Below, one piece after another: positions 33,449 through 61,575 of a DNA stretch of 64,000 nucleotides. A program made the translations under genes and the position numbers. Origin of the DNA: Methylotenera sp. (GTDB lineage: Bacteria; Pseudomonadota; Gammaproteobacteria; Burkholderiales; Methylophilaceae); assembly GCA_021732405.1 (NCBI GenBank), contig JAKFVB010000022.1, positions 552 to 64,551 of the forward strand. Direction: 5' to 3'. A model generated the notes under the pieces. That model searched no databases. It was not told the origin of the DNA and saw only the letters and a list, made by a program, of their open reading frames with translations. Within the stretch, counting starts at the first letter, position 1. Each line of letters opens with the position of its first letter.

Positions 33449-33451
33449 TAC

Positions 33452-39579: not shown

Positions 39580-39593
39580 AAACAACACTGCCG

Positions 39594-40362: not shown

Positions 40363-41058
40363 TTAATTAACGGTTTTTTTAGATGAAAAACGCTCTTCAT
40401 CTAATTTATCTTGTTGATTTTGCAATATATTTTCTAGCTGAACCCGTTTTAACTGGAAAAACTGCTCTTTACGCATCACGGCTTCGTACTGACTAGGCGT
40501 GTCATAAATATGTATTAATTCGGTGCCAAATTGATGCAATTTGCCATTTTTAACCGAGCAAGTATTCAATTCTTTGGTGGTATCTGCCAGATTTTTTGAT
40601 ATGGTTTTGCGCTGATTATCGTTAAATTTTAGGTCGGCTAATGCTTGTGCATGAACACCTTTTAAATCGGTCAGACTGTTTTGGGTAGTGTCTAGCTTCG
40701 CCTGCGTTTCAGTCAGTTTAGTTTCAACCACAGTTTTCTCATCCATGGTTTTAGTTAACTCAATACTTAAGTTTTTAGCCTTGCGCTGTGATGATGCCAA
40801 TGCCTTATTGGTTTTTTCTAACTCAGTATCTTTAGCCAATAACTGCTCTTGCAAGGCCTTTTTTTCTGTATCAAATTGGGTTTGCATGGCCGCTTTTTCG
40901 GCTTCCATATCTTGCTTCATTTTTTGCATCATCAATGCCTGACGCCTTGCAGCTTTGTCTTTTTTTTCCGCTGCTATAGCCGATTGCGGCAGAAGCATGC
41001 CAGCCAACAAAGCCAATATGAATAGCCCAACAATTTTTTGCGCGACAGTTAGTTTCAT
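40363..41058 (-). CDS. Exported coiled-coil protein
   Basis: Signal peptide, long heptad-rich region, C..KN..L and RVQLEN tail. Confidence 0.7.
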   Translation of the reverse strand: MKLTVAQKIVGLFILALLAGMLLPQSAIAAEKKDKAARRQALMMQKMKQDMEAEKAAMQTQFDTEKKALQEQLLAKDTELEKTNKALASSQRKAKNLSIELTKTMDEKTVVETKLTETQAKLDTTQNSLTDLKGVHAQALADLKFNDNQRKTISKNLADTTKELNTCSVKNGKLHQFGTELIHIYDTPSQYEAVMRKEQFFQLKRVQLENILQNQQDKLDEERFSSKKTVN

Positions 41059-41069
41059 GATGGCCTCAA

Positions 41070-42836
41070 TTAAAACTTGGTGTTCAAATCAAGCAATAGC
41101 ACATCGATACCTAATGGATCTAAGCCCCCGCGCGGCGAAATCTCATCGGCGCTAAACCAACGTGCTTGCAGCCATGTATTTTTACCGATGCCGTAACTGC
41201 CGCCCAAAATCCAGCCTTTTACATTCGTACCACGTTGGTAAAAGTCAGAATCGGTAAACGTATCCACCACTGAATCGGCCTCTAGGTGCTTATAAGCGGC
41301 AAACACTTGCCAGTCATGCAGTTTTTCGGTGGTGGGCATACCAACATCTAGCCTTACTTGATAAGCGTTTACTTCTTCATCAGGCACTAAGCCAGGCACA
41401 ATGCCTGTTCTTCTGATGATTTCGTTACGGTCAAAACCAATATTGCGCACATAATCACCTGTTAAGCTAATGTGTACAGGATCAAAAGCAGCAATATCCA
41501 CCTTGCCCGTCAGGTTAAGCTCTCTAAATTTAGAGGCGTAACCAAATAGTGGGTCGCTGCCGAACTGTCCCCCATTTATGTCAAATGTTGAGTTACCTTT
41601 AGTGCGTGCGTTGGCAGATGTTGAATTAAAGGGTGCATTGGGCCCAAATTGACCCGCAGGGTTGGCAATACCCTCAACATTATCAAACTCATATAATGCC
41701 AATCCCACTTTGACAGACGATTTATTGGCAGAAGTCCATTTAATGCCCGTTTGCGCACCATACAACCATTTATCTTTGGCTCTGTTAAATTCCGAGCTTT
41801 CAATCTCATCTATCGGAAACACGCCAGCTGTTGCAAAGCCAGACCAACGATCATTAAATTTGGGCTTATAACTAGCTGCAACACCATCAAACGCCAAATC
41901 AGGATCCCACACCAAATCGGTTGAGAACCATGGGTTTTCAAAGCGACCACCCACCAAACTTAATTCTGGTGTGATATTGGTTTTTAAGAAAACACGGTCT
42001 AGATTCAACTCATACTTACCACTCACGCCTTGTAATGTTTCGTTAGCAGAAATAGGGTCATTTATACTACCAGTGGTCATTCTGATGCCACCGTTTAACC
42101 AATCGTTTACTTTGATATTAAAGCCGAATCTTGCACGCACCCGCGCACGATTTCGGTCTTCGGTTGTGTTGTTTAAAACCACATTGTTTGCCGCAATAAA
42201 GTCATTCAGATTGGGATTACCATCTGGAAATTGCGTAGTTTGGTACCTCAATCTTAAATCGCCCTCCCACTGCAAACGGTCAATCCAATCGGGCAAGCCT
42301 AAACGCTCACCCGCTTTGAAATTCAGTTTCGCCATCACTTCTTTTTTAATTTCTTCTTTCATTTCATTTTTAACAATTTGCGGTACATATTGCACACGCA
42401 CTTTTTCATCGACGATTTTGCCGACCATTTTTTCATCTGCAGACAAATCAGCTGTATTTTGATTCGCCAGTGCTGTAGCGGTGTCTAATTCTTTGGCTTT
42501 TTCGGCATCGGCTGCGGCTTGTTTTAATAAGGCCTCTGCTTTCTCTTTGCTCAATACGCCTTCTTGCACCAATAAGTTAACCAAGTTAACAGTGGTTGAG
42601 CGTAACTGCTCTAGCGATTCGCGCTCACCTGCAACGGCATTATTGGTACTCATACTTAACGCTATAATAAGCATTAAAAGTGTATGAACAGGCTTGTTTG
42701 CATGGCTTAAAAAGCCACCCTTTTGCCCCATAGCAGCTAATCCCAAGCTTAATTTTTTCATGCTGGGTTTTACACTTAGTTTTATCGTCATTTTCATGGT
42801 CGTTCTCGTTTTAATTTCAATTAATTGTTTAATCAC
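41070..42836 (-). CDS. Putative porin with N-terminal periplasmic extension
   Basis: NLLVQEGVLSKEKA N-domain; GDLRLRY, RNRARVRAR, DLVWDPDL, TDSDF, ends DLNTKF. Start uncertain. Confidence 0.8.
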   Translation of the reverse strand: MIKQLIEIKTRTTMKMTIKLSVKPSMKKLSLGLAAMGQKGGFLSHANKPVHTLLMLIIALSMSTNNAVAGERESLEQLRSTTVNLVNLLVQEGVLSKEKAEALLKQAAADAEKAKELDTATALANQNTADLSADEKMVGKIVDEKVRVQYVPQIVKNEMKEEIKKEVMAKLNFKAGERLGLPDWIDRLQWEGDLRLRYQTTQFPDGNPNLNDFIAANNVVLNNTTEDRNRARVRARFGFNIKVNDWLNGGIRMTTGSINDPISANETLQGVSGKYELNLDRVFLKTNITPELSLVGGRFENPWFSTDLVWDPDLAFDGVAASYKPKFNDRWSGFATAGVFPIDEIESSEFNRAKDKWLYGAQTGIKWTSANKSSVKVGLALYEFDNVEGIANPAGQFGPNAPFNSTSANARTKGNSTFDINGGQFGSDPLFGYASKFRELNLTGKVDIAAFDPVHISLTGDYVRNIGFDRNEIIRRTGIVPGLVPDEEVNAYQVRLDVGMPTTEKLHDWQVFAAYKHLEADSVVDTFTDSDFYQRGTNVKGWILGGSYGIGKNTWLQARWFSADEISPRGGLDPLGIDVLLLDLNTKF

Positions 42837-42857
42837 TGCACTGCTTTCAAGGCCACA

Positions 42858-43592
42858 TTAGCCAACAGAGCGCGCAGTCACTCTTAATTTCACAGGTTGC
42901 GGCATATCGCCTGGCGGCTTTTCAGCCAGTTTTGGCATCGCATCCAGTTGTTTTTTAATCAGGGTATCAATATCTGGCTTGCCGCTTGAGCTAGCCAGTT
43001 CAAAGCGCTCAATCGCGCCATTTGATGCCACCCACACTTTCACCACCACTTTATAAGCGCCACTTGCCAGCGTTTTATCTTTGCTCATGGCGTCTTCAAT
43101 TTGGTTTTTAAGCAAATCGGTATACCAAGCAAATTGATATTTATTTGGCCCACCACCAATGGTATTACCTGTTTTTACGTCGCCACCTTTGTAGTCGTTG
43201 GTTACAGGACCCGATCCAAACGGACTTGGGCCATCGCCTGCGGCACCTTCCATTTTTAACTGCTCGGCAGGCGGCGTTTCTACTGGTTTTGGTTGCTCTA
43301 CCTTAATTTCTTTTGGTGCGTCTGGCTTAGGCTGCTCTTTTGGCGGTTCTTTGGGCGGCGGCGGAGGTGGCGGTGGCGGCGTATCTGGTAGCAACTTAAT
43401 GGTTGTAACCTTTTTTTTCGCTGGCGCGCCGCCAGACATTAAACTACTAATGCCGTAACCAATGCCGCCTAATACAATTAAACCAATCAATATGATTGCG
43501 ATACGTTTAAGCCAAACGCCAGTCTGCGATTCTGGCTCATCTTCATCCAGCATTGGGTCGTAGGTTTTGTTCATGTTTTCTTGCATCATCAA
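42858..43592 (-). CDS. TonB/TolA-like energy transducer
   Basis: Single N-terminal TM, poly-Pro linker, TonB_C-like SSGKPDID...PPGDMPQPV. Confidence 0.85.
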   Translation of the reverse strand: MMMQENMNKTYDPMLDEDEPESQTGVWLKRIAIILIGLIVLGGIGYGISSLMSGGAPAKKKVTTIKLLPDTPPPPPPPPPKEPPKEQPKPDAPKEIKVEQPKPVETPPAEQLKMEGAAGDGPSPFGSGPVTNDYKGGDVKTGNTIGGGPNKYQFAWYTDLLKNQIEDAMSKDKTLASGAYKVVVKVWVASNGAIERFELASSSGKPDIDTLIKKQLDAMPKLAEKPPGDMPQPVKLRVTARSVG

Positions 43593-43598
43593 TAACGC

Positions 43599-44003
43599 TT
43601 ACGTGCCAATTCGGCCTGTAACCAATCCCACGTTTTCAATTTCCAACTTATTCACTAAATCAATCACACCTACCACGCCTGCATAAGGCGCTTTTGCGTC
43701 GCCGCGAATCATCACGTTAAATTTTGGGTCAGCTGCTTTTGCTGCATTTAGTTGGTTTTCCAGCTCAGTCATACTCACGCCTGCGCCATTAATCGTCAGG
43801 CCACCACCTTGTTGCACTTGCACAATTTTAATTTCATGCTTTTCAGTGCTTGGCTTGTTAGATGGCTTAGGCAAATTCATGGTTAAACCCTGTACACCTG
43901 CTGTGGTCATCAGGATAAAAATCACCAGCAACACATAGGCTAAATCCAACATCGGCGTGATGTTGATGGTGTCGTATGGCTGTGCATCATTTTGTACTTG
44001 CAT
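43599..44003 (-). CDS. exbD: ExbD/TolR protein
   Basis: INITPMLDLAYVLLVIFI with conserved Asp; IRGD. Confidence 0.9.
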   Translation of the reverse strand: MQVQNDAQPYDTINITPMLDLAYVLLVIFILMTTAGVQGLTMNLPKPSNKPSTEKHEIKIVQVQQGGGLTINGAGVSMTELENQLNAAKAADPKFNVMIRGDAKAPYAGVVGVIDLVNKLEIENVGLVTGRIGT

Positions 44004-44047
44004 TTAAAGTCCTTGTGTTGGTTAAGTTATTTAAAAAGTTAACCTAT

Positions 44048-44458
44048 TTAATTGCTTAACTTTTTAGTCACTAAACCGACTTCAGTAATATCCAATTTTT
44101 TGCAAATCTCTAATACTTCAGATACTTTTTCATAATTAGCTGTTGCATCACCTTTTAACACCACAGGTAATGCAGGGTTACCACTTTTAAACTCACTTAA
44201 ACGTTGCTCTAAAGTAATCATGTCTACTGGATAAGCATCTAAATAAACACTGCCATCGCTGGTAATCGTAATTGCGCGCGTTTGCGGTTTGGCTAAACTG
44301 CCAGAGTTAACCGTTTGTGGCATATCTACCTTTACGCCTTGCACCGACGCGGTTGTCATGATGATAAAAATCACCAGCAACACGTACGCCAAATCCAACA
44401 TCGGCGTGATGTTAATCTCGTCGTATAGCTGGTTCTCTTCTTTTATACCCTCTGACAT
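44048..44458 (-). CDS. exbD: ExbD/TolR protein
   Basis: INITPMLDLAYVLLVIFI; LKGD. Confidence 0.9.
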   Translation of the reverse strand: MSEGIKEENQLYDEINITPMLDLAYVLLVIFIIMTTASVQGVKVDMPQTVNSGSLAKPQTRAITITSDGSVYLDAYPVDMITLEQRLSEFKSGNPALPVVLKGDATANYEKVSEVLEICKKLDITEVGLVTKKLSN

Positions 44459-44461
44459 TTC

Positions 44462-46147
44462 TTATTCTTTACCAAATAACTCGGCAGAACGTGTTACAAA
44501 CTCATCCACAAAAATCTGCATGGCAATGGTGATATTTTTGATGCGGCTAGCTAAATAGTTGTAGCCAAACAAAGCAGGAATCGCCACCGCCAAACCGGCA
44601 ACCGTTGCCAGCAAAGCGGCTGCAATACCAGGCGCAATCGCATTTACGTTCACATCACCCGCAGCGGCAATCGCCGCAAAGGTAATCATCACGCCCACCA
44701 CCGTGCCTAATAATCCCAAGAAAGGGCCGCCAGAAATCGCAATGGTCAGTAACACCATGCCCGCATTTTGGCGCTGTGTTTCGCGTACTAAATCCGCATC
44801 AATCGCTGCTTTAATGGCATCCATCGATGCGCCACTGAGTGATAGTTTTTCACCCTCATGCTGGCGCTTTTTAATCTCACGCAAACCTGCTTGATACAAC
44901 TTAAATAGATTGGAATGTGGATATTTACCGCCCTTATCTAGCTCCAATAAGTCGCTGGCATTCGATTTTTGAAAGCGCGCTAAGAATCTTTTATTGTCTT
45001 TATCGGTGTGCGATACCAGCATGGCTTTGCTCCACATCACCCACACACTAATCGCAAACATCACAGCTAAAATACCAATGACAATTTTGGCGTCAATTGT
45101 TAAGCTGTTAATTAAAATGCCAAGGTAATTAGCTTCACCCTCCTCCTCTTCACCATCCTCACCGCCCTCACCTTCAGCGATTTTTAACAGTTGGCTATCA
45201 ACACTTTCGCTACTGGCAATCAGCTTGATAAAGTCTGCGCTGCGCGCTATATTGGCAATTTCCAACTCATCTACTTCGCCCGTAAAACCCTCACCAATTT
45301 TAATATCGGTGGCTGTATCTACCGTTGGCACATCGCCTGTGGCTACTTCTACACCGTTTAAATACAGTACGGCTTTACCAGCATTTAAGGTAAACGCAAT
45401 ATGTTGCCAAACAGCAGGTTTTAGCTCGCCGCCCGTTAATACAATTTCGCCTATTTTTAGCGTTAAGTTCTGCGCGGCAATGGCTAAATCCACGTTATTT
45501 TCTTGGCTATACAAGCTTGCTGTTTGTGGCAAGGCGCTTGGCTTAATCCATGCAGACCAAGTAAATCCTGCGCTGGCATTGGTGGCGGCATTGGCAGGAA
45601 TCACTAGCGCTTCGCCTGTTAACACTGCACTTTCGCCAATTAAGCCCGCTTTTTGCGCGGTAATTTTGCCACTGGCAAATAAGCCTGATGTTGAACTATC
45701 TTGCAGTAAGGCTTTGTCAGAAAACTGGAATTTAGCGACTAAGTGTGAATCCAGCATGATTTTTGGGTTAGCGGTACTGGTGGCGTTTTCGTTACCGTAA
45801 TACAACCAAAAATGAGCATCTTTATCTGCCCCGCTAATTTGCGGAATTTGTACCCAAATAATGGCTAACTCATTTACCGCATCAAATTTTTCTACAAAAT
45901 ATTTGAGCTCAGTTTTGTCATCTTGCGCAATAAAACGGATATCAGAGCCATCAATATTCACAGACGTAAAATCAAAATTACCAGAATGCAAACGCACCAC
46001 CACAGAGGGCTGAACGATAGCCTGTGTAATGCCAACGGCATTAATGCTGATTTTTTTACGCTGTGGCCAATCGGCATTCCATTCTGCAAAGCCACTTATC
46101 GGAAAAAGCCCCATCACCAAACTTAATAACACTAACCATTTCTTCAT
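44462..46147 (-). CDS. DUF2341 + LamG-like + MotA/TolQ/ExbB fusion
   Basis: Signal peptide; DGSDIRF...LYYGN (DUF2341); WIKP...WQHIA...LYLNG (LamG); GPFLGLLGTVVG and ATVAGLAVAIPA (ExbB); ATG 46147 with AAGGGA RBS. Confidence 0.88.
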   Translation of the reverse strand: MKKWLVLLSLVMGLFPISGFAEWNADWPQRKKISINAVGITQAIVQPSVVVRLHSGNFDFTSVNIDGSDIRFIAQDDKTELKYFVEKFDAVNELAIIWVQIPQISGADKDAHFWLYYGNENATSTANPKIMLDSHLVAKFQFSDKALLQDSSTSGLFASGKITAQKAGLIGESAVLTGEALVIPANAATNASAGFTWSAWIKPSALPQTASLYSQENNVDLAIAAQNLTLKIGEIVLTGGELKPAVWQHIAFTLNAGKAVLYLNGVEVATGDVPTVDTATDIKIGEGFTGEVDELEIANIARSADFIKLIASSESVDSQLLKIAEGEGGEDGEEEEGEANYLGILINSLTIDAKIVIGILAVMFAISVWVMWSKAMLVSHTDKDNKRFLARFQKSNASDLLELDKGGKYPHSNLFKLYQAGLREIKKRQHEGEKLSLSGASMDAIKAAIDADLVRETQRQNAGMVLLTIAISGGPFLGLLGTVVGVMITFAAIAAAGDVNVNAIAPGIAAALLATVAGLAVAIPALFGYNYLASRIKNITIAMQIFVDEFVTRSAELFGKE

Positions 46148-46192
46148 GCTGCTTCCCTTTGTATTCAATTTATTTACTTCTATATTCAATGA

Positions 46193-47863
46193 TTAAAAAT
46201 CGTACCAAAAGCGTATATGGCTTAAAAAATCGCCTTTTTCGGTTGCGGCGCTGTCTCTTAATGCCCACGCCAAATCCAAATTTAAATTAAAGTTTGTCCA
46301 GGCTTTGGCGCGCAGGCCAATGCCGTAGCCAGCCAACACAGATTGCCTGTCTTGTCCAGGCAGTGGATCAATTGTTCTAATCTTGGCAATATCGTAAAAC
46401 GCCGCTAATTTTGTGTTTTGCAGCCAGTTAACATTTTTAAATAGCACTGGTGAAGTTAATTCTAAAGTTGAATGAATACCTTGATCGCCCGCTTCTTCCG
46501 ACTCTAGATAACCTCTAACAGTATCTGCACCGCCCACCAAAAACTGCTCATTGGGAATCAATGGTGAGCCAGAATATTGGCCATCAATTTTGGCTAACAG
46601 TTGAAAATCTTTAGGTAAGTTTTGTGTGCGTTGTAAATCGATTTTTGCTACAAAGAAATTAGAATTCGCACCAACTCTTCTGGCTTCAAATTCTGCTTCA
46701 TCAGAAATAAAACCACGCAAACCTACGTTAACGCCTGTGTTTAGCTGCGTTCTGCCAGTGGCGCCTTGCCAAGTTCCGCTGTAAGAAGCTGATAACGGCG
46801 CGTAAGTCACAGGTGTCTCAAAATCGGTGCCAAAGACAATGGTTTGGCCAAAGTCTTTGTAATCAATCCCCAAAGAAATCGAATGGAAGTAGTTATCTAA
46901 ATTTGGCAAAGGCTTGATTAAGCGCGCGCCCAAAATAGTACCGTCGCCCAAAATATTGACACCGCCCACTGTGGCTACGTTACTTTTAGACCTAACGCCG
47001 TATAAGGCCAATAAAATGTCACTGGTGTCAAAGCGCCATAAATAGTTGGCCGATAACACTTGTACTTCATCTGTATTTTCTGGCGAAACCAAGAAATTAA
47101 GTGACAGGCTGTGCTCTCGCTGCCACAAGTTATCGTATTTAATCGTGCCGCCTAATCTTGGCTTGGTCGTGTCGCGGCTATAGCGATTATTGAGTTCTAA
47201 GTTTGCATGCAGTGGCAGTGTATCTTCTACTTTTAAATCCACTTCTACCGTACCAAAGGTTTTACCAGCCCTTAAAACGGGCGTCACTCGCTTATCTGAT
47301 GAGCGATTTAAGCGCGTAATATCGGCTTGCAAGGTGGGGAAATGCGGTACTTGGCCCTCTTGAACAGATGGCGACAACGCTTTAATACGGCCCAATGAAA
47401 AGTATTTTGAGTCTTTCACTCTAAACTTAGCGACTTTGCCTTCAGTGACATTTAAGCGGACTACTTTTTTATCCACATCTTGTTCGGGAATATCCACCAA
47501 AACCGTTAAATAGCCTGCTTGATGGTAAGTTTTTTCTAGTGCATCACGCGCTTTATTCACATCATCAATTGATTTTTTTTCACCCATGTGCGGGTAAACA
47601 GCTGTTTCAATTTGCACATTGGTGAGCTTGGTATTGCCGTCTACCTGAAACTCATAAATATCGAAATAATTGACTGCTGGCTCAGCCTGTGTGTTTACTT
47701 CTGCTTGTACGCCATCTTGAGCCGCTGCTGCGTCCTGCTTTTGTGTTGCAACTTCCGCCTCTGGCGCGATTGACTCTTCTGCCGCGCACAGCACTTCTAC
47801 ATTCATCAGCAACAGAATGCTTAACACAACTGTGCTTATTGTTTGGTTATAGTGCTGACGCAT
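46193..47863 (-). CDS. TpsB (ShlB/FhaC/HecB) two-partner secretion transporter
   Basis: POTRA (VDGNT...YHQAGY), NLWQREH, VRGY motif, C-terminal aromatic residue. Confidence 0.92.
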   Translation of the reverse strand: MRQHYNQTISTVVLSILLLMNVEVLCAAEESIAPEAEVATQKQDAAAAQDGVQAEVNTQAEPAVNYFDIYEFQVDGNTKLTNVQIETAVYPHMGEKKSIDDVNKARDALEKTYHQAGYLTVLVDIPEQDVDKKVVRLNVTEGKVAKFRVKDSKYFSLGRIKALSPSVQEGQVPHFPTLQADITRLNRSSDKRVTPVLRAGKTFGTVEVDLKVEDTLPLHANLELNNRYSRDTTKPRLGGTIKYDNLWQREHSLSLNFLVSPENTDEVQVLSANYLWRFDTSDILLALYGVRSKSNVATVGGVNILGDGTILGARLIKPLPNLDNYFHSISLGIDYKDFGQTIVFGTDFETPVTYAPLSASYSGTWQGATGRTQLNTGVNVGLRGFISDEAEFEARRVGANSNFFVAKIDLQRTQNLPKDFQLLAKIDGQYSGSPLIPNEQFLVGGADTVRGYLESEEAGDQGIHSTLELTSPVLFKNVNWLQNTKLAAFYDIAKIRTIDPLPGQDRQSVLAGYGIGLRAKAWTNFNLNLDLAWALRDSAATEKGDFLSHIRFWYDF

Positions 47864-47930
47864 GAAAAAGAAATCCCAAGACTATCAGTGCAGAAATACC
47901 GCATTTTCTGCACCCTAAAATTAAGGCTTG

Positions 47931-47964
47931 ATAGTAATAGGACTATGTGACGATAAAATTACAA
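47931..47964 (-). promoter_or_regulatory. Pho box-like promoter of the tpsB-exbB-exbDD-tonB-porin operon
   Basis: TTGTAAT-TTTA-TCGTCAC, 10 bp spacer, TACTAT (-10). Confidence 0.65.
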
Positions 47965-48036
47965 ATAACTACGGTTGTTAAAATTTCGCCTACTTGTTAC
48001 AAATGACTTTAGTTTGTTACAAGTGGGCAAAAATTA

Positions 48037-54000: not shown

Positions 54001-57000
54001 TGGTGCTGAATTTAAAACTAAATTTGCAGGGCCAAAATTATATAAATAATCTAAGCCATCTTGCTGCGTAAAACCAAACGGAATTAATGCATTTTGTGCA
54101 GAAACTGAAGTGACGCTGCCAGCATTTAAATTCAATGTGTCACTGGCATTTAAAGCAATAGTGCCAAAAGGGGCTAGCAGAACACCATTTTGGTTAATGG
54201 TTTCAGCATTAATATTTAACGTGCCGCCTGCGGATAACACTGCATCGTAGCCACTAGCTGGATTGATTTTGTTAATTGTCACCGTGCTACCGATGCCACT
54301 TACTGTAATCGTGTAATCAGTCAGCGTAGTTGGGTAAATTTGGCGCGCATTTAATTCAAGCGCACCTTTGGTTAATAATGTGCCTGTGGGTGGTTGCCTG
54401 AATCCACCAGCGGCTAAGTTTGGGTTACTAATACCCGTTAATCGAATATCACCCTGGCTATTAATAGCCGTGTTAGAAAAGCCTGATAAGGCAAATGAAC
54501 CTCTTAAATCAGCTAAATTCGCATTCACAGTAAATTGTGCGTTACCAGCCACTGGTGTGGTGGCAGTATATTCAGAGTTTGGTCTGATTGCTTGTGTTTC
54601 AAATTCATTTGCAAGCACAACATTAGGTGCTGTTAATGTGACCGATGAATCTGCCGTCGCTTCTATCACTCTGGCATTTAAGCTAATGCTACGCGAGGTG
54701 GTTAAATTGACATCGCCAGTAAAACGTACACCGTATTCTGATTTTAATGCCACATCGCTAAAACCACCCTCAGTTATGCGGTCAGCAGAAATTTTTGCAA
54801 CGCCACTTGCGGCTGGTTGCACTGCATCACCCACATTTAAACTATCTGGCACAAATGTACCCGATTGCGCCACATCAATATACCAAAGCTGGTCTGGCGC
54901 ATTACCTACGTTGATATCAGATGGTAATGTTCCTGGATATGGAGACGTTATTAAACCCAGACTAGTAGTACCGCCACGCGTTAAGCGCACATCTAAGCTA
55001 CCAGCTAAACCACCAGGTGATGATGCATTAAAAGTAGAATCCAGCAATATACCCTCACGCGCACTAATTGAAACTTCACCGCCATTACTGGCAATTCTGG
55101 TTGGAGTAATACTATTGGTATTACGAATATCTAATACAGCAGAAGTACCTGCCACATTAATTTCTGACCCCGTTTTTGCTACTACAAAGCCTTTGTTGGC
55201 GTCGATATTGACATGGCCACCATCATAAACAGTACCAATGCGCTGATTGACATTAGTAGGGGCTAAAGCCGTGTGTCCGCTAGCATTTAATACAGCATTT
55301 TCGCCTAACCAAATGGCTTGCGCGGCATTGTAACCATTATCATCGATTGCAGATGGTGATCCATTCATTACCAAAGAAATATCACCGCCCAAGGCTTGCA
55401 ATGTGCCATCTACGACAATTTGATTATCCCATGCTGATAGTGAAATGCTTGGCACTACTGTGCCGCCAGTTACTGACTCTCTTGCGCCATTTGAATCTAC
55501 TTTAATATTAGCGTTGGCTTCAACAACAATGCTGCCTCTTGACACGCCACTAGCTAAAAATGGGTCTGACACTGACGCCATTAATGCTGACTGCGTGGCT
55601 AAAGTTAATGTGGTTGAAGCGCGATTAAACGCAGGCAAAAGCGTTGGCGTGGCGAAATCATTGACGCGCGCGCCTGTTCTTTGTAACTGAAAATTTCTAT
55701 TTAACTGGTAATTTTTAGCGACCACGCTAACATCGGTATTACTGCGCACAATCACACCGTCGCGACCTGTTAAATTAAAGCTGACAAAACCGCTATCCTG
55801 AAAAAATTCTGGTGTTGCTAAAAACTCACGTGCGTCGCCAAAACCACTATTGCCAATGGTGATAAAGGGTGCAGTAATAGATAAATCACCACCCGTACCC
55901 AGTGCAAAACCACGCAGTTCACCGTTAAGTTTTGGCGCAACATAAGTAAATGGGTTAAGCGCTGTGCCTTGATCTACTTGCGTAGCAATATGAATGCTTC
56001 CTGCATTGCCATTATCTAGTTCAGCTCTGTTGCGCACATTATGCAAATAGCCGCCACCAGAAACATCCACCAAACTACCCGTGCCCAACGTTACTTCATC
56101 GGTAGAGCTAATACTGACACTACCGCCATGTTCTTGAATGCGACCTGTTTGTAATGCGCCATTGGTGTCATTAATCCAATTGCCAGAAACGTCTAACTTA
56201 ACACCATTAGCAACGGTAATATTAGTATCGGCTGAGCCAACAATTCCCTCTATAAATTCGGTGGTTAAAGCAATATCGCCGCTACGTGAAACGATATTTT
56301 GATTCACTTGAATTTCACGCCCAGTGATTGCAATTTTTGCACCATTCACCAAGTTAACTGCACTATTCACTTGCACACTACCACCAGTGGTAATGGCAAT
56401 ATCTTCAAAACCACTGCGGCTTAACATGCCCGCATCAATTTCAACTGTGCTTGCACGGTTTGTTGGTAATACAGAATCAGTTGCAAAGTTGCCAGCTAAT
56501 GCAACTGTGTTGCCAATATTAACGTTCTGCGCTGGCGTTAGTGTAGTTGGCAATATTAAGTTAATCGACAATTGCGCCATCATGTTATCGGCTTCACGTT
56601 GTCTTTCACCGTAAATTCCGCCGCCTAATAACTGTCCGTCTAATGCAATAGTTGAAGCCTCAATCTGTAAAGCCACAGCTTGTGTTTGGCCTTGTTGTGC
56701 ATTAAGCACTCTGCCATTTACTAATCTACTGCCTCTGCCCTCGGTGTAGCCTGCTTCTTGAAGTAAACGCACATTCCTACCGCCTAAAAACCCCACAAAC
56801 AGCGTATCTGCAGGTGCATCACCTAATGCATAACTTCTGCCGTCTGCTGCCTCAAGCCAGGTTTCTCGGCTTATGCCCGCATTAAATCGTAATGAGCCAC
56901 CAGAAACATCCACTGTAGATCCCGTACGCTGAATAAAATCACCCTCAGATCGCAATGTAACCGCGCCACCATCAGCTAGTTTTTCACCTACGGCACGTGG

Positions 57001-58827
57001 TACTTGGCGCACAAAACCTGCCAAGTTAGCCACGCGTGAGTCTGGCGTATTGCGGATATCAAACATCACAAATTGCCGATTTAAAAATTCGTTGCGGTTA
57101 ATCGGGTCATCGTTAAGATCGGTTTGCGTCAATAAAGCCTCTACAAAATTACGACCTAAATCCACCTCTACATTTTTTAAACCTGCTGCATCTACTAGTG
57201 TATTTTTACCTAAATAAAGTCGTGATTGGGTTTCTGGATTAGTACTACCAATACCTTGACCAAATAACTGCCCAGTTTGCGCTGTAATATTGATAAAGCC
57301 GCCAGGCACCACGATTTTAGCGTTATCGTTAACAGTCACCTGTCTACCAATTGCCTCTATTACGGGTGGATTAAATATTTGGTCATCGGTAATGGTAGTA
57401 CCCATTACATTGACTGCAGATAACACTTTATTCAAATACGATTTATCGCCGCCTCTTGCTTCAGGCTCGCCGATTTGTGGTGATGAAAATAATTCATTCA
57501 CCTTGTAAACAGCGGCTTTATCTTCAGCCAAAATAGTAGTCACACTGTTTTCACCAAAACTGAGTTGTCCGTTGCGGCTACCCGTGATTAAGGTGTTAGG
57601 AATTGATTCATTGCCAACGGTTAATCGATTAGTAAATTGCGTGGCTACATTGTTTGCATCATAAACCAGCTCATCCGACTCTAACGCCCTTGTATCTCTT
57701 GCCAACAAGCGTATTGAGCCTTTTTGGGTGGCTGAAGATGTCGCAGTAACGCGACCATTTTGATTCACCAAGTATGACGCCATAGTGACATTGCCGCGCT
57801 GCGCTAAAATACGGCCAGATGTGTCATTAGTTACTGTGCCAAATAGCTCTGTGGCTTGATTTTCAATCGATGGGTCAATTTCATCTGGTTTCAGTTGGTA
57901 AGAATCCACTTCTACCAATACGCCTGCCAAACCTTTAAGTGCAGAATCATCTGCATAATCAAACGTTCCTGACGCTACTTCATTCAGCTCTGGCGCGTAA
58001 GATAAATACACTTTGTCACCAGCCGCCAACGCAACTTGGCCTCCGTTAGTTTCAATACTGCCTTGGTTAATCACTTTTGGGGCAAATAATAAAACTGAGC
58101 TACCCAAGGCTGCTTTAATTTGGGCATCTGGTTCTACTTGTACTAATACGGTTTGAAAGCCATTTGCATCACCACCCCAATTATAAGCGGCACGGTTAGC
58201 GCCTAAAAAAGCCGGTAATAAATGGCCTTGCTCACTTAAAAAATCAGTATCTTGCAAATCGAGTGCAGAGGCCACCAAGCCATTCACATTCACGCGTGCG
58301 CCGTTGGCAAACAAAATACCATTTTGGTTAATCAAATAAACACTGCCGTTTGGTGAGTTTAGTGCACCCTGAATAATACTTTTAGGGCCATTAATGCGGA
58401 CCAAAGTAGCCGAACCCGCGCCACCTAAATGATTAAAGTTAACAGTGGCAGCAGAGCCAATATTAAAGTTGGTACCTTGCAAGATACCTTTTTGCGTAAT
58501 CTGATTAATATTTAATAACCCATTTGAGCCAGTAGGCAATTGGCCTGCAGTCAATGGCGCACCGCCGTTACCAACATAACTACCGCTTGTTATGTTCAAG
58601 CCAGTTGGTATCGTTAATGCATCTGCAAATGAAACCTTAACCGACCCTACCAAGCTAATACCAAGTATTAATATAGTTAAGCTTATTTTTTTAGATTGTT
58701 TAAGCGCTTTTTTAAATGCCTTTCCAGCGCCATTTTTGCCAGATTGATGCCCACGAACATGCTCACCTACCGCCATCCAAATACCACGAGATGTGTTGTA
58801 AACAAGACGATAAATTCCAATATTCAT
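48037..58827 (-). CDS. Giant filamentous-hemagglutinin-like TpsA with DUF3739-type C-terminus (3596 aa)
   Basis: ESPR leader (IYRLVYN...WMAVGE), TPS domain (FNIG...LINQNGILF), beta-helix repeats (DVSGG), YTLLPARYALLPGA, VNQSRVFT...IDAGRG. Confidence 0.9.
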   Translation of the reverse strand: MNIGIYRLVYNTSRGIWMAVGEHVRGHQSGKNGAGKAFKKALKQSKKISLTILILGISLVGSVKVSFADALTIPTGLNITSGSYVGNGGAPLTAGQLPTGSNGLLNINQITQKGILQGTNFNIGSAATVNFNHLGGAGSATLVRINGPKSIIQGALNSPNGSVYLINQNGILFANGARVNVNGLVASALDLQDTDFLSEQGHLLPAFLGANRAAYNWGGDANGFQTVLVQVEPDAQIKAALGSSVLLFAPKVINQGSIETNGGQVALAAGDKVYLSYAPELNEVASGTFDYADDSALKGLAGVLVEVDSYQLKPDEIDPSIENQATELFGTVTNDTSGRILAQRGNVTMASYLVNQNGRVTATSSATQKGSIRLLARDTRALESDELVYDANNVATQFTNRLTVGNESIPNTLITGSRNGQLSFGENSVTTILAEDKAAVYKVNELFSSPQIGEPEARGGDKSYLNKVLSAVNVMGTTITDDQIFNPPVIEAIGRQVTVNDNAKIVVPGGFINITAQTGQLFGQGIGSTNPETQSRLYLGKNTLVDAAGLKNVEVDLGRNFVEALLTQTDLNDDPINRNEFLNRQFVMFDIRNTPDSRVANLAGFVRQVPRAVGEKLADGGAVTLRSEGDFIQRTGSTVDVSGGSLRFNAGISRETWLEAADGRSYALGDAPADTLFVGFLGGRNVRLLQEAGYTEGRGSRLVNGRVLNAQQGQTQAVALQIEASTIALDGQLLGGGIYGERQREADNMMAQLSINLILPTTLTPAQNVNIGNTVALAGNFATDSVLPTNRASTVEIDAGMLSRSGFEDIAITTGGSVQVNSAVNLVNGAKIAITGREIQVNQNIVSRSGDIALTTEFIEGIVGSADTNITVANGVKLDVSGNWINDTNGALQTGRIQEHGGSVSISSTDEVTLGTGSLVDVSGGGYLHNVRNRAELDNGNAGSIHIATQVDQGTALNPFTYVAPKLNGELRGFALGTGGDLSITAPFITIGNSGFGDAREFLATPEFFQDSGFVSFNLTGRDGVIVRSNTDVSVVAKNYQLNRNFQLQRTGARVNDFATPTLLPAFNRASTTLTLATQSALMASVSDPFLASGVSRGSIVVEANANIKVDSNGARESVTGGTVVPSISLSAWDNQIVVDGTLQALGGDISLVMNGSPSAIDDNGYNAAQAIWLGENAVLNASGHTALAPTNVNQRIGTVYDGGHVNIDANKGFVVAKTGSEINVAGTSAVLDIRNTNSITPTRIASNGGEVSISAREGILLDSTFNASSPGGLAGSLDVRLTRGGTTSLGLITSPYPGTLPSDINVGNAPDQLWYIDVAQSGTFVPDSLNVGDAVQPAASGVAKISADRITEGGFSDVALKSEYGVRFTGDVNLTTSRSISLNARVIEATADSSVTLTAPNVVLANEFETQAIRPNSEYTATTPVAGNAQFTVNANLADLRGSFALSGFSNTAINSQGDIRLTGISNPNLAAGGFRQPPTGTLLTKGALELNARQIYPTTLTDYTITVSGIGSTVTINKINPASGYDAVLSAGGTLNINAETINQNGVLLAPFGTIALNASDTLNLNAGSVTSVSAQNALIPFGFTQQDGLDYLYNFGPANLVLNSAPERVVRLNAPNVNQNEDSVIDISGGGDLFAYEWVPGLGGSSDVLAADANQQAFGQNATNTWVILPNNNQTFASFDPQYWQGSNIKAGDAVYISGAPGVAAGYYTLLPARYALLPGAVLVSAVSGAQDRTEGLTSTLVNGSTLVSGHLAAFTSNGYTQTARTAGFVVRSDADAYKLAQYNTTTASAFFSGNTQAQRTIDAGRLSIAATESLVLRGTLTAITQQGGSGSEVDIAAPNLLVVGAGEQTGQVDLNGINYLAIDETTLANFNAASLLLGGTRSQGNVDVVSGEVRLNGNANVTGPEVILAATDTVRLDSGATLTGRGTGAGARNITIGNVTNSAGVLDGDGALVRVSGGAAATLTRTNVNADRGDLIIDTGATVVADGSVLLDGSRNTSLQGDIDFAEGAALAFSSGRISLGAPVNGESVADGLWLQDEQLAEFTAAGSLSLNSQSTIDIYGSATFGNNNFDLTLQSAGLAGYQNNGQTATITAQNLTIGNNNNAVFAPATALSNGTVPTLGTGNLVIQAETVNLGNNTERLAGYDQIDINASREIVAAGSTARPTAAATPNQLLADNNLTLSAPRLTTASRADYAINAGNLNTGTLKVQGSVGAQPTNLASPQSQGTRLSLSGDKVILAGGTTQTSNITDRHAAAIVVKGGQVTVSATGAAATDNVTLENGASINVTGSLFTINDQTVALPAGSVALQSANGDIDVQTGALIDVSAAGNGDAGRFSASAVNGDVRLAGTIKAVESGKNAIASVDAKSISNISQVLAALGNFAAEQMFRVREGDITIGASDKITANSVKVNVDQGAITVNGTIDASGNKGGNIELFAKNDVTINRGAKLLAKGLADTNSTAGSLGNGGDVIISSDAGIVRTVASDANGLSGALIDVSGDQVGAVRGENGDVIFRAARTGVGAGNGVNVDSQAAAAVTGARRVLIEAVKQYTNADFGNQANITINAAQQTTIRTDTNNFAAAIAPTIASFSPTRDGLAAIIAPSVDIFSTGDLNVGVVNNFTVQNNWVLGNSTTAANLLVNSGGILNLRAANNLNINGNIDYEQFSVANNIIAPRSGSWSYRLVAGADRTAANIETTLAGAGNISVRDGQFVRTGTGFIHAAAGNNLNLGTLNGAGAAIYTTGLPDTTNPVDFIGLSFAQDREIYADGGGDINIALGGNLAGSAREAQTQTVTDWVFHTAQNSTTQNTQARWWNRYDTVTTGLPANRTAGFTNGLATLGGGDVNIQTAGQVSNLQVAAANNGRLGGPLNEAPNLASFEELGGGDVNLQANGAVSQVLLYTGKGDINAQSGSDLSATIALMDGQASLVATGNITVTGASNPTITSSESRTRLANFYTYTEDAAVSAVSLAGNIEVRGNTEAYPSNLFAATPNGNINIESVTLFPSRTGNATLLAGNNINIDGLVISEVDPNTLPFITTNFLGVARPQISTFQGGAAHTAGLLHINDTEPVRIYALNDIAFNNEVTTDGVSTFNIAAPLITPKATIISAGNDVVDANVILQNIRPTDISVIEAGNNIYYNDAGQSGGTLQISDGGIQVTGPGRLHVTANKDIDLGTSDGIRSLGNLYNPFLPTQGADLLVQAGAAAVADFEGVLNAYVDPASIYSSIYLPQLTQLIRTRTGDSSIDSTQALTAFRQLDKQSQTGFINSVYFAELRAGGRDALDVNNSSFGDYSRSQRAILTMFPTFAQPETTQSLLASTGSIMNGFESIGNEEVSNPGDLSLFYSQIRSESGGAIEILVPGGLVNAGLAVASSIAKPDSELGIVTLRGGDLLGFVRDDFLVNQSRVFTLGGSDLLLYSALGSIDAGRGAKTSSSTPPPLITIQNGQVTFDFSGAVTGSGIAALTSTGGVPGRASLFAPYGEINAGEAGIRSAGDIDLGARVIIGADNIKVGGTSTGLPVASTGAAGLTAPASSDPTAQNKQGSEIAESTKTDGNKLAALPSLITVEVISLGDELAPTSPKLKPCVPDDKTKKDCQP

Positions 58828-58968
58828 AGCATTAATCCTTTTAAAACATTCAAATCAAACAACTCAATTAACCAATTTAAAGCAAATTACTTAACAACCA
58901 TTTTCTGTGCATTTTTTGCCAAAAAATAATGGTTAACTAACTTTAATTTTGCAGCCTATTCAGTAGCA

Positions 58969-59000
58969 CAAAAGCCCTTCCCTAGTTTCAGGGAAGGGCT
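58969..59000 (-). terminator. Intrinsic terminator after the PstS-like gene
   Basis: agcccttccct-agtttc-agggaagggct followed by TTT on the minus strand. Confidence 0.75.
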
Positions 59001-59058
59001 GCCGTTTCAATTATTCGTTACAGATACAAAAACATTCTGTTTTGAATAAACCACTCAA

Positions 59059-60633
59059 CTAGATTGAATCGAAAGCTTGCAATGGTGCGCAAGTATTACC
59101 GCCACGTGAGAATCTAGATACGAAATTTCTGTATGGATTGCCAGTAGCTGGGTTGTTGCCAACATATGGCGTAAATTGTGGTAATGATGCAAAAGCATTT
59201 GGTACTGATACGAATTGGCCACCATCATTGCCTGTGTAACGTGTAGAACCAGCACGTCTTACAAACTCGTTATAGAAGCTTTGTTTAATTGCATCAGTTG
59301 CTAAAGCAGGCACTACGTCACCATTTACGTTAGTTACTGTTGTGTTACGTGATTGAAGTGATAACTCAACTACAAAGTCATATGAACCATTTAACAAGTT
59401 TGCTTTTGATGGCGCAATACCTGTTGCACCAGCTGAAGAAGATTGTGTACCTGAACCATCGGCTGCGCCTGAGTAAGTGTAAGTACCTGCACCATCCAAA
59501 TGACGGAATGTATAACCTGCACCGCCAGTACCAGCGGTTACATAGCTGTCTAAGGACAATACGCCGATTGCTTTACCTGCTGATGGCAGCCTGTTGAACA
59601 ATACGCTGTAAAACACACCACTTGCACCTTGCACATTAAACACTGTGCGGTTTTGAGCGGCTGTTAAGCATGAACGTAGATTACCTGATGTTGAGTTTTC
59701 AACTACTGTGTAACCTTGACTTGGGTCAAGAACGAACGGATCTGCTGAAGTGCCTGAACCACTAACTAAAGTTGGGCTTTGGTCGGCTGATATTGGCGCA
59801 TTTCCTAAAAAACCACCTGATGAAGTGTTACATGGAAAGCCTGAGAAAAAGAAATTGTATGAAGATTGTGTACCAGAACCATTTGGACGACGACATACAA
59901 TTACTGGGTTTGTTGCTGCTGGCGAACCATCGATGCTTGACCAATCAGTAATTCTACCTGCCAACATTGCACCGTATTGCGCACGGCTGATAGATGTAGT
60001 CGCTGCAACAGCGTTTGTGGCCACAATACCCATCATAATTTGGTTAACTGGTAGGTTATTTAAACGAGCTAGTTCTGCTGTGCTTAATGCTGGTTGACCA
60101 TTTTCTGTGTTGTACGGCTCGGCAAACAAAGCTGGCTCTACGTCAGAAATACCAAAATCTGGCACTAAACCTGTGTTAGATGACGTTGCATGACCTGCAA
60201 CACCTGGGTCAATACCTGTTGTAGTACATGAAAAAGAATATGGGCTTGCTGCTGTTGGTGTTGTTGCAGTACAGCTGTTAAAATCAATGGTTTGAATACG
60301 TGCTGCACGTGCCACTGGGTCTACACCAAATACTGAGCCACCTTGTGAGCGTTTGATAAATAAAATAGGAGTGCCAACTGCAACACCTGGAATACCAGCA
60401 GCCGCTTGGCCCAAGAATGCACGATGTAAAGGCGCTGTTGGAGAGTCGCTAGTACGAATACCAGTAACACCTGTTAACATACTAGAAGCAAGATCAGCTA
60501 AAAAGTTATCTGGTGCTGAAGCGCCAGATAAGAATATGACGCGTGTACCTGCTGGAATAGTGACTGATGCTGCTTGTGCTGACAAAGCAGCTAAAGCTAA
60601 ACCGCAAGCTACTGCAATTTTTGTAAATTTCAT
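59059..60633 (-). CDS. Exported PstS/DING-like phosphate-binding-fold protein
   Basis: Signal peptide (AQA-A); SGASAP, SQGGS, DFGISD, RRPNGSGTQ parallel PstS motifs; several Cys. Confidence 0.6.
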   Translation of the reverse strand: MKFTKIAVACGLALAALSAQAASVTIPAGTRVIFLSGASAPDNFLADLASSMLTGVTGIRTSDSPTAPLHRAFLGQAAAGIPGVAVGTPILFIKRSQGGSVFGVDPVARAARIQTIDFNSCTATTPTAASPYSFSCTTTGIDPGVAGHATSSNTGLVPDFGISDVEPALFAEPYNTENGQPALSTAELARLNNLPVNQIMMGIVATNAVAATTSISRAQYGAMLAGRITDWSSIDGSPAATNPVIVCRRPNGSGTQSSYNFFFSGFPCNTSSGGFLGNAPISADQSPTLVSGSGTSADPFVLDPSQGYTVVENSTSGNLRSCLTAAQNRTVFNVQGASGVFYSVLFNRLPSAGKAIGVLSLDSYVTAGTGGAGYTFRHLDGAGTYTYSGAADGSGTQSSSAGATGIAPSKANLLNGSYDFVVELSLQSRNTTVTNVNGDVVPALATDAIKQSFYNEFVRRAGSTRYTGNDGGQFVSVPNAFASLPQFTPYVGNNPATGNPYRNFVSRFSRGGNTCAPLQAFDSI

Positions 60634-60717
60634 GATGTTTCCTCTGAATAATAAGTTTTAGTTTTTAAATGGACTGCTTAGTAAAGAACAGCCCATTTAT
60701 ACTTAAATAAGATTTTC

Positions 60718-61575
60718 TTAAGCAGCTTTATTACGACGACGTGCAATACCTGCCACCAAACCTAAACCAGCTAACAACATGGCATATGTTTCTGGTTCTG
60801 GCACTGGCGCTACTGCAATGCGCAAACGCCATTCGTCATTTTGTAAATAAGTGCTTACAACGATTGGTGCATTGTCAAATGAAAGCAACTGTGTATTTAG
60901 CGCAGGAGTATTTTGTGAACCAACTGTAGTTGTTTGCGCCAATAAGAATATACCTGTTGATGCACCTAAAATATTAGTTGTATCAGTAATATTGTTAGCG
61001 TAAGTACTACCGAAGTTACCTGCGTAAGCAGCGCCGTTTGTTGAGCTTGTAACAGCAAATGTATCTTCAGCAGGCTCAATAATAAAACCATTTGAAGTTA
61101 GTGCATAAGTCTGCCAAGCAGTGGCTGCTTGAGTCACAAGTTGGTTAGTTGATGTTAATGGGCCTGAATCACCTTGAGTGAACAATACACGTCTACGTCC
61201 AGTTACATCGATTGCACCTAAATTCCACTGTACTTGAGAAAAGTCAGCAAAATTAGCTGTGCTAAAACCAGTTAATGCTTGGTCAAAAATAACGCCATCA
61301 GCACCAATTAATGAAGAAGCCACTCTAGCATTTTCCAAAACAGCCACGTTACCTGCTGCTGTTGTAGGTGAATCTAAACCTGCTAAATCGTGAAAAACTC
61401 TATCCCAGTTTAAATCGTATGTATAACCAATACCTGCGTTAGCATCCCAAGCACTGAACACAAACTCTGAGCTGCCTGTTGTTGTTGACGAAGCAGCTGT
61501 AATTGCCGCGTTTACTGACATTGAAGATGCAGCTAAAACTACTGCCGCAACCAATGTATTTAATTTAATTTTCAT
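60718..61575 (-). CDS. PEP-CTERM sorting-domain protein
   Basis: Signal peptide; Thr/Ala/Ser-rich body; VPEPETYAMLLAGLGLVAGIARRR; AGGAG RBS. Confidence 0.92.
   Translation of the reverse strand: MKIKLNTLVAAVVLAASSMSVNAAITAASSTTTGSSEFVFSAWDANAGIGYTYDLNWDRVFHDLAGLDSPTTAAGNVAVLENARVASSLIGADGVIFDQALTGFSTANFADFSQVQWNLGAIDVTGRRRVLFTQGDSGPLTSTNQLVTQAATAWQTYALTSNGFIIEPAEDTFAVTSSTNGAAYAGNFGSTYANNITDTTNILGASTGIFLLAQTTTVGSQNTPALNTQLLSFDNAPIVVSTYLQNDEWRLRIAVAPVPEPETYAMLLAGLGLVAGIARRRNKAA

Follow-up and report, generated by a model that had tools for sequence, protein, structure and literature searches.

The closest described relative of the gene cluster analysed here belongs to the PUMA3 regulon of Pseudomonas aeruginosa, which comprises hxc (a type II secretion system, T2SS), lapA/lapB, pdtA (PA0690), pdtB, exbB2, exbD2, tonB4 and PA0696-PA0701. 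In the accessible portion of an account of hxc, lapA, pdtA and pdtB (Otero-Asman 2020, PMC7035377), exbB2-exbD2-tonB4 are termed “still uncharacterized” and PA0696-PA0700 “still unknown”. Excerpts of an earlier study (Llamas 2009, PMC2729926) report that homologues of two-partner secretion (TPS), ExbBD and PA0696 proteins stay together in several bacteria, and propose an unknown outer-membrane partner for the TonB-like tip of VreA; the same gene set is listed in extracts of a Pseudomonas comparative study (PMC7204214). The literature searched, with subscription journals and supplements outside its scope, yielded no mechanistic study of this module and, in the partial texts it offered, no mention of the conserved C-terminal strand described below. 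Here, from a 64,000-nt stretch (hereafter the window) of Methylotenera sp. contig JAKFVB010000022.1, part of a genome 89% complete in 90 contigs, we describe a ten-gene cluster that is an exosortase-B- and EpsA-linked variant, itself new, of this known but mechanistically unexplained module. An earlier note on this DNA, in which the published P. aeruginosa counterpart went unrecognised, had reported the co-oriented run of ten genes between epsA/dsbC and CAAX-epsL-epsD through xrtB; open reading frame (ORF), Pfam and NCBIfam analyses agree on the genes, the minus-strand interval (40363-61575), the lengths reported and both flanks. In the feature lines, counts out of 12 refer to a survey of upstream regions for which 20 stretches were fetched and 12 genomes were informative, all chosen for their PstS-like gene and most already known to carry the module.

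60718..61575, minus strand: PEP-CTERM protein gene (PF07589); directly upstream of the PstS-like gene in 10/12 informative loci
59059..60633, minus strand: exported-type PstS/DING-fold protein, 524 aa (weak PBP_like_2 match, below cut-off; structure model and Foldseek)
48037..58827, minus strand: TpsA, 3596 aa, DUF3739 family, PdtA-like (ESPR, TIGR01901, DUF3739)
48115..48141, minus strand: nine-residue C-terminal strand of TpsA, residues 3563-3571 (from conservation; a TonB-binding role is proposed)
46193..47863, minus strand: TpsB export pore, PdtB-like (POTRA_2, ShlB, Omp85)
44462..46189, minus strand: ExbB with periplasmic DUF2341 and LamG (DUF2341, LamG, MotA_ExbB)
44048..44458, minus strand: ExbD copy 1 (Pfam; membrane aspartate present)
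43599..44003, minus strand: ExbD copy 2 (Pfam; membrane aspartate present)
42858..43592, minus strand: dedicated TonB, TonB4-like (TonB_2; membrane anchor, proline-rich linker, C-terminal domain)
41070..42836, minus strand: Porin_5 protein, PA0696-like (Porin_5 E 1e-161)
40363..41058, minus strand: exported-type helical protein, PA0697-like, 231 aa (no Pfam or NCBIfam family)

The likeness to PUMA3 covers a T2SS, a phosphate-binding-type exoprotein, TpsA, TpsB, ExbB, ExbD, TonB, a putative porin and a hypothetical protein, all in the same order. Likeness to strain PAO1 rests on the published gene order, the sequences compared being those of Pseudomonas-type and Klebsiella-plasmid loci with exactly that order, to which homology is clear for ExbB (35% identity), TpsB (36-42%) and the porin (32-35%). 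Relative to PUMA3, the window lacks vreAIR, YbjN, the LysR gene and any convincing Pho box and has EpsA instead; it carries two ExbD genes, a PEP-CTERM gene, a different and larger PstS-fold family and one tail strand rather than two, and its module is embedded in an exosortase B/exopolysaccharide island. The nearest relatives that bear a name are Methylophilaceae.

Comparison with better-understood machineries revealed partial likenesses. Haemophilus influenzae HxuA/HxuB/HxuC and HMW1 resemble the cluster in having a TPS protein with a related TPS domain and a C-terminal anchor, working in the Hxu case with TonB-driven uptake (PMC5422565, in the part of the review available), but the target of TonB there is HxuC, a plug-and-barrel receptor, whereas the window has no such receptor, carries its motor within the cluster and encodes a TpsA about four times larger. 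TonB-dependent transducers of the FecA/FpvA type share the TonB-gripped periplasmic strand (here proposed) and, in lineages with VreA, an STN domain coupled to a FecR-type anti-sigma factor; unlike them, the module has no 22-strand barrel or plug, carries its candidate strand at the C-terminus of a secreted fibre, and has the STN domain on a separate protein. The Myxococcus Agl-Glt machinery likewise combines a Tol/Ton-type motor and TonB-like tips with outer-membrane barrels and a surface adhesin (PMC11761067, excerpts); the module differs in lacking TPR, FHA and cytoplasmic platform genes and in having TpsA as its adhesin, making the comparison one of analogy only.

Gene content identifies both a TPS (type Vb) system and a Ton/Tol motor. 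TpsA possesses an ESPR and a TPS domain, the latter closest to those of EtpA, HxuA and HMW1 (PDB sequence matches 8cpk, 4i84 and 2odl), and TpsB possesses POTRA domains and a ShlB barrel; DUF3739 and the tail of TpsA had no match in the PDB sequence search. ExbB has membrane helices with conserved threonines, both ExbD copies have the membrane aspartate, residues whose functional roles we take to be as in other motors of this kind, and TonB has an anchor, a proline-rich linker and a C-terminal domain. The combination of DUF2341, LamG and MotA_ExbB in ExbB recurred in 7/7 distant loci scanned; its LamG part matches solved lectin-like domains, while its DUF2341 part matches none and is called uncharacterised in the accessible text of a stator survey (PMC12505986). 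The earlier statement that the window holds neither a plug-barrel TonB-dependent receptor nor a T2SS is literally true but misleading, given that eight such receptors are encoded elsewhere in the source genome and that the island's T2SS lies just past the window end (see below). The receptors are accompanied elsewhere in the genome by three other ExbB/TolQ loci, and the absence of a plug-barrel receptor from the cluster itself therefore implies that its dedicated TonB needs another client. What the earlier note had proposed as one conserved, mechanistically unexplained envelope machine with its own Ton motor and no plug-barrel receptor is borne out.

A candidate for this client was identified at the extreme C-terminus of TpsA. 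DUF3739 is followed by a low-complexity, unconserved linker of 41-53 aa and then by a nine-residue strand, often only a few residues from the terminus, with the pattern hydrophobic-x-hydrophobic-acid-hydrophobic-hydrophobic-Gly/Ser-hydrophobic-Gly. Across 55 homologues, conservation was 0.88 in the tail strand versus 0.41 in the linker, and a pattern search recovered the strand in 92/120 further DUF3739 proteins compared with 11/972 control proteins. The strand is kept from Methylophilaceae to Pseudomonas-type (gamma-) and alphaproteobacterial TpsAs, the linker conserving length only. Median identity among close relatives is 30% for TpsA, versus 53% for the porin, 69% for ExbB and 86-88% for ExbD, and within the genus TpsA and the PstS-like protein are each 26-30% identical, versus 74-94% for ExbB and ExbD, as expected if the former are the exposed parts. 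For HMW1 and HxuA, a review expects the C-termini to remain periplasmic (PMC5422565), and the TpsA of the window, too, ends in a cysteine pair.

Further evidence comes from the TonB tip. A profile of this tip finds the module TonBs together with STN-bearing VreA-like proteins encoded next to FecR-type genes (E 7e-18 to 1e-11 among the VreA-like matches listed), yet it matches the source genome's other TonB-type proteins at only E 0.015 and 0.11, and solved TonB, TolA and HasB structures at E 0.01-0.7. Reciprocally, a VreA profile retrieves the window's TonB at 9e-20 and 17/17 module TonBs at 5e-7 or better, the next match in the window's own genome being 2e-4. On these profile matches, the module TonB tip and the VreA tip form a subfamily of their own; VreA thus carries a non-anchored copy of the module TonB tip, and a strand of the same kind is its likely binding partner. 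Consistent with this, a second copy of the tail strand, further on in TpsA, was found in 9/12 VreA-bearing genomes or loci but in 0/18 without VreA, a count in which the strand was read by eye, STN was confirmed by Pfam or annotation for only some VreA-bearing cases, six of the 18 negative cases had a weak second profile match (E 5e-6 to 7e-5) taken as a housekeeping TonB, and two genomes (G382 and G433) and three plasmid loci were left out because tail or VreA status was lacking. In one genome (G266), a VreA-like gene precedes each of the three TpsA genes and another, the fourth, comes before tpsB; this genome has one porin. This correspondence of two tips with two strands and one tip with one strand offers the best, if indirect, support for a TonB-tail interaction. 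The tail strand, the TonB-tip/VreA subfamily and the VreA-linked second strand are, as features of sequence, newly described here. In the window itself, vreA, vreI and vreR were not found by Pfam or NCBIfam, and the source genome, at the completeness given above, has only one strong TonB-tip match.

VreA-type clusters also encode small proteins whose TonB tip is of the module type, no STN being detected in the three that were scanned; these add a third member to the subfamily and might act as a decoy or inhibitor:

L081:7399-7983: small TonB-tip protein
L082:2232-2828: small TonB-tip protein
L091:15466-15903: small TonB-tip protein
L135:26827-27411: small TonB-tip protein
L136:26132-26641: small TonB-tip protein

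The region around the TpsA tail varies among lineages. In Rubrivivax/Aquabacterium/Roseateles-type loci (L039, L043, L050, L054-L058, L062-L078) an acidic and then a poly-Arg run precedes the tail strand, an arrangement present in 19/54 classified tails. TonB tips are more acidic where tails have the poly-Arg run (net charge 0.0, n=6, versus +2.7, n=30), while the charge shift in the N-domains of ExbB and the porin runs in the opposite direction; since the cases form one clade and ExbB and the porin also show acid-gain columns, we do not count this covariation as evidence. Methylophilus-type loci (L024-L030, L034, L036) have about 7-8.5 kb of other DNA between the tpsA end and exbB. DUF3739 proteins of about 1100 aa look like partial gene calls, 9/9 of those inspected starting mid-domain. 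Identity as a CdiA-type contact-dependent inhibition toxin was rejected: Pfam and NCBIfam found only ESPR, TPS and DUF3739 in TpsA, plus a below-cut-off DUF6799, with no pre-toxin/VENN or toxin domain, and no ORF of at least 90 aa lies between tpsA and tpsB.

From these observations we tentatively favour, with somewhat less than even confidence, a model in which the motor grips the C-terminal tail strand of TpsA, predicted to be periplasmic, so that TpsA would be a plug-less TonB client. Like HMW1 and HxuA, TpsA would thread through TpsB and be retained by its tail; the fixed-length linker would span the pore, and the strand would add to the TonB beta-sheet as a TonB box does. Proton-driven pulling might then tension, gate or release the fibre, which would display or dock the T2SS-secreted phosphate-binding protein in the exopolysaccharide matrix, phosphate species entering via the basic porin. 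In PUMA3 lineages VreA would read the second strand copy and signal to the sigma factor, a control that EpsA likely replaces here. On this sequence-based reading, the earlier idea of TpsA or the porin as the target of the motor is retained and made more specific. A broader proposal, that DUF3739 TpsAs constitute a new class of TonB client with fibre and TpsB in the receptor's role, the duplicated strand being, in Pseudomonas and other lineages with VreA, the missing outer-membrane partner of VreA and PdtA the PUMA3 receptor, appears possible but doubtful. The strand and the TonB/VreA subfamily give a nine-residue, testable answer to two open questions in P. aeruginosa, namely the uncharacterised module and the partner of the VreA tip; if true, two-partner secretion, usually deemed energy-independent, would here be coupled to the proton-motive force after secretion.

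Several observations weigh against this model. The periplasmic location of the TpsA tail is borrowed by analogy from relatives, and its strand is not a canonical TonB box and could instead pair with the TpsB POTRA domains, the lectin-like domain of ExbB or the porin stalk. A cysteine pair follows the strand in only 11/55 tails. Three of the 12 VreA-bearing cases are without a second strand, those that have one may represent one mobile subfamily, and the fourth VreA-like gene of G266 precedes the porin operon, thereby fitting a porin-directed motor too. In P. aeruginosa, deletion of vreA left regulon expression unchanged in low phosphate (PMC4971064, accessible part), and tpsA, tpsB, tonB and PA0696 mutants were fully virulent in zebrafish (PMC2729926, excerpts). 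The phosphate step is the weakest link, since the PstS-like family was not found at E 1e-8 in 7/8 phylum-level carriers of the module. Moreover, an ad hoc consensus scan found no convincing Pho box before the module here or in 11 related promoters: best scores were 17 upstream of the PEP-CTERM gene and 21.5 upstream of tpsB, compared with 25 for the genome's best site and at most 18.5 in the related promoters.

That genome-best site (about 19780-19797) lies just upstream of a choice-of-anchor I PEP-CTERM gene (18200-19732) at the far end of the exopolysaccharide island, and at least one PEP-CTERM cargo thus looks phosphate-regulated. A further Pho-box-like site, with a score of 23, was found upstream of gspG of the island T2SS (L101:8750-8790; contig C36 near 13758).

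The remaining challenge to the tail model, and its nearest rival, concerns the porin. Structure prediction gave a 16-strand barrel of OmpM/OprP type, a fold of solute channels, without plug and with a helical periplasmic N-terminal stalk. Its best structural match is Veillonella OmpM1 (Z 25.9, root-mean-square deviation 3.1, 303 aligned residues), P. aeruginosa OprP (Z 20.0) being tied with general porins; OmpM1 and OprP share the 16-strand barrel, at 16-18% identity. The stalk matched no solved chain, having barely been probed by the fold searches, no SLH domain was detected by Pfam, and the porin had no match in the PDB sequence search. A TonB-dependent receptor identity was rejected for it, given the 16 strands, the plug-less model and no match to PF00593. 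This porin could itself be the motor's target, TonB binding a stalk strand to gate or energise the import of phosphate, a phosphate ester or another such anionic nutrient through a plug-less TonB-dependent importer, with the secreted PstS-like protein and the fibre concentrating the nutrient at the surface; we regard this as unlikely. It would account for the adjacency of tonB and the porin gene in every surveyed related locus with both in range, and for a conserved free strand of the porin's own (residues 146-152) with an arginine invariant in 60/60 sequences. The monomer model places this strand where a low-confidence linker ends. Conserved barrel-strand residues, 17 basic versus 8 acidic, suggest, but do not establish, that anions are preferred, OprP ranks among the best structural matches, and the P. 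aeruginosa operon is under phosphate-starvation control (PMC4971064, in the text available). On the other hand, the model has no plug, OmpM1 is an attachment porin, OprP scores no better than general porins, the stalk strand may simply build the trimer stalk, and no convincing Pho box precedes the module here; the TpsA tail strand and its VreA-linked duplication would also be left unexplained. A rather different role, which we judge quite unlikely, is that of a Tol-Pal-like or Agl-Glt-like device, in which TonB, via the helical protein, the porin stalk or TpsB, would draw the wall and the outer membrane towards each other or move the 370-kDa TpsA through the periplasm; the tail strand would do no more than anchor TpsA in TpsB. 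The TonB_2/TolA-type tip, the OmpM1-like stalked porin and the pairing of one ExbB with two ExbD copies are in line with such a device, as are a periplasmic peptidyl-prolyl isomerase in Pseudomonas-type loci, EpsD next door here, and Myxococcus TonB-like tips modelled on periplasmic partners rather than barrels (PMC11761067, excerpts). Against this, the source genome has a separate Tol-like locus and other ExbB loci, and a device of this kind gives no reason for the copy of the TonB tip in a signalling protein. Classical two-partner secretion, moreover, needs no motor.

The helical protein named in this device was earlier described as coiled-coil, a label that gains little from its sequence: no proline or glycine occurs over residues 36-126, but a 3.5-residue period is among the top peaks without being the highest, and only 1/6 windows beat shuffled sequences at p<0.05. 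Its atlas neighbours are all hypothetical proteins, and its C-terminal part is 24% identical to the protein at the same position in a Pseudomonas-type locus (E 3e-7).

For the two proteins encoded upstream, PEP-CTERM and PstS-like, a separate question arises. The PstS-like label given earlier is backed by an AlphaFold model of the 524-aa protein (mean predicted local distance difference test score, pLDDT, 91.5) and by Foldseek, whose listed matches are all PstS/DING-type phosphate-binding proteins except for the last row. Residues S/T39, S100, D164, R249, S253, G254 and T255, which we take to be the PstS phosphate ligands, are kept in 92-93/93 homologues, and the protein has five conserved cysteines; alleles within the family are about 25% identical, yet keep the first motif and, mostly, the Arg-Ser-Gly-Thr motif. 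The sequence lacks DINGGG, and with no pst genes in the window the gene does not form part of a pstSCAB operon; a separate canonical PstS is encoded on contig C25. Full-length PEP-CTERM homologues move with the module in rearranged Methyloversatilis-type loci. XrtB (TIGR03113, above cut-off), EpsI and PEP-CTERM targets are all present, identifying an exosortase B system, and 10 PEP-CTERM-type ORFs were found by pattern in the source genome (11 matches, one judged spurious).

A secretion route for these proteins was identified through gene order. Contig C36 of the source genome carries wcaJ, a PEP-CTERM gene and gspG-F-E onward, ending inside a secretin at residue 333 of 677. In a complete genome of the same genus (G458), T2SS genes run unbroken into epsA, PEP-CTERM and PstS-like genes and then the module, in the order tpsB, tpsA, exbB, exbD, exbD, tonB, porin, helical protein, CAAX, epsL-G, xrtB, epsI; the last ORF of the window's contig is orthologous to the G458 gene between the T2SS and epsA. 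Together these place the start of the island T2SS, very likely, some 5 kb beyond the window end, on the far side of an assembly gap; the joining of both contigs is drawn from G458, and the T2SS identity rests on GspG above cut-off, gene order and orthology, with GspD and GspE below cut-off in the source genome. A T2SS lies upstream of the PstS-like gene in 10/12 informative related loci, and a separate search of an overlapping set placed a gspG orthologue 12-13 kb upstream in 8/9 genomes. In Pseudomonas fluorescens SBW25, a DING protein encoded beside an hxc-type T2SS is secreted by that T2SS (PMC2225411), and GlyGly-CTERM and MYXO-CTERM proteins need a T2SS (bioRxiv 10.1101/2023.06.07.544157), according to the parts of these two sources available. 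The PstS-like and PEP-CTERM proteins likely leave via the island's own T2SS, and the open question of PEP-CTERM export is thereby redirected towards a specific linked secretion system. Two further secretin/ATPase/pilin clusters, of T2SS or mannose-sensitive haemagglutinin (MSHA) type, were observed in the source genome (C11:42000-53500 and C12:42500-53191).

The module core is widespread, occurring in 8/300 Pseudomonadota genomes, 17/150 Burkholderiales genomes and 12 plasmid records. Full-length Porin_5 and DUF3739 were found in the same eight of the 300 sampled Pseudomonadota genomes, the other 292 having neither (six further genomes with only partial Porin_5 matches were left uncounted); the module arrangement is not due to chance. 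The phylogenetic profiling proposed in the earlier note supported linkage within Burkholderiales but not beyond. In the Burkholderiales set, xrtB was present in 13/17 module genomes versus 17/133 others and the PstS-like family in 13/17 versus 1/133, the family member sharing a contig with the porin in 11 of the latter 13 and lying 16-19 kb upstream of it, counts whose p values are overstated because kin are not independent; only three of the 13 xrtB-bearing module genomes have that gene at most 40 kb from the porin. At the phylum level an exosortase was present in 3/8 module genomes versus 53/292 others (p 0.17). These counts indicate that the core is independent of exosortase, the PEP-CTERM/PstS-like/xrtB link marking a betaproteobacterial variant of the module; in Pseudomonas-type loci the core lacks exopolysaccharide and PEP-CTERM genes. 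A conjugative Klebsiella plasmid (L135:1-28400) carries a whole PUMA3-type module with tandem TpsA genes, from which we conclude that the module is mobile. A Methylomagnum plasmid locus (L133:11600-33383) has ExbB, ExbD, TonB and a hypothetical gene; two genes for alkaline phosphatase and a DUF3739 TpsA lie nearby, and the stretch read contains no porin.

Two further explanations centre on these upstream proteins. The earlier note had taken the Ton/porin/TpsB module for the missing outer-membrane export or assembly route of PEP-CTERM and PstS-like proteins, and the order-level association with xrtB, with the same caveat on kin, together with the conservation of both genes upstream and their movement with the module on rearrangement, might be read that way. 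Export by the module is nevertheless very improbable given a T2SS in the same island, the Hxc secretion of a DING protein and the T2SS need of the other sorting systems cited above; with 5/8 phylum-level carriers lacking an exosortase the module is unlikely to be the PEP-CTERM exit, 53/56 exosortase genomes lack the module, and a 16-strand porin is not a known exit for folded proteins. Alternatively, the PstS-fold and PEP-CTERM proteins might be structural matrix or surface-layer subunits on the fibre, serving floc or biofilm formation rather than phosphate supply and leaving the motor's target open. EpsA upstream in 12/12 loci, the lack of a convincing Pho box, a terminator-like hairpin between tpsA and the two small genes, of the sort expected where products are abundant, and the low identity among alleles within one family would agree with this, and floc formation in Aquincola has been linked to PEP-CTERM proteins (PMC9850573, accessible text). 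We nonetheless consider a purely structural role improbable, as phosphate-site motifs are kept across divergent alleles and the Pseudomonas-type core lacks the exopolysaccharide and PEP-CTERM genes.

The neighbouring features of the window are as follows.

62975..63826, minus strand: epsA, LuxR-type regulator (TIGR03020 above cut-off); upstream of the PstS-like gene in 12/12 informative loci
61955..62857, plus strand: dsbC-like disulphide isomerase, divergent, a variable neighbour (Pfam DsbC_N, Thioredoxin_2); in 2/12 related upstream regions
58973..59000, minus strand: terminator-like 12-bp hairpin between the PstS-like gene and tpsA (consensus scan only)
31849..40265, minus strand: CAAX protease-epsL-epsD-epsE-epsF-epsG-xrtB-epsI, exosortase B/exopolysaccharide genes (NCBIfam above cut-off)

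EpsA is the likely regulator of the module in the window's variant, a role suggested by its position. Neighbouring genes from tpsB through to the end of the cluster are 3-44 bp apart, compared with 231 bp between the PstS-like gene and tpsA and 173 bp between tpsA and tpsB; the scan that gave the hairpin found 10 such sites where 6.9 were expected by chance, and sigma-70 promoter scans returned fewer sites than the chance expectation. In 25/80 loci, 22 of them titled Methylophilaceae or its genera, the module is followed by one or more of CAAX, epsL and epsD.

Elsewhere in the island, EpsE (35933-37015) is a 360-aa protein with three SLBB repeats, in which a 239-position model matched twice, and two ORFs of 794 and 495 aa without Pfam or NCBIfam match (22198-24582 and 26703-28190) are located among glycosyltransferases. 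Beside the island, an RpfF-like crotonase, a hybrid kinase, a receiver protein and an HD-domain response regulator (11876-16553), followed by a FadL channel (16836-18089), resemble a diffusible-signal-factor system. Finally, positions 3014-7459 encode a pyrroloquinoline quinone (PQQ) methanol dehydrogenase, a MoxJ-like protein and two tandem cytochrome c(L)-like genes.

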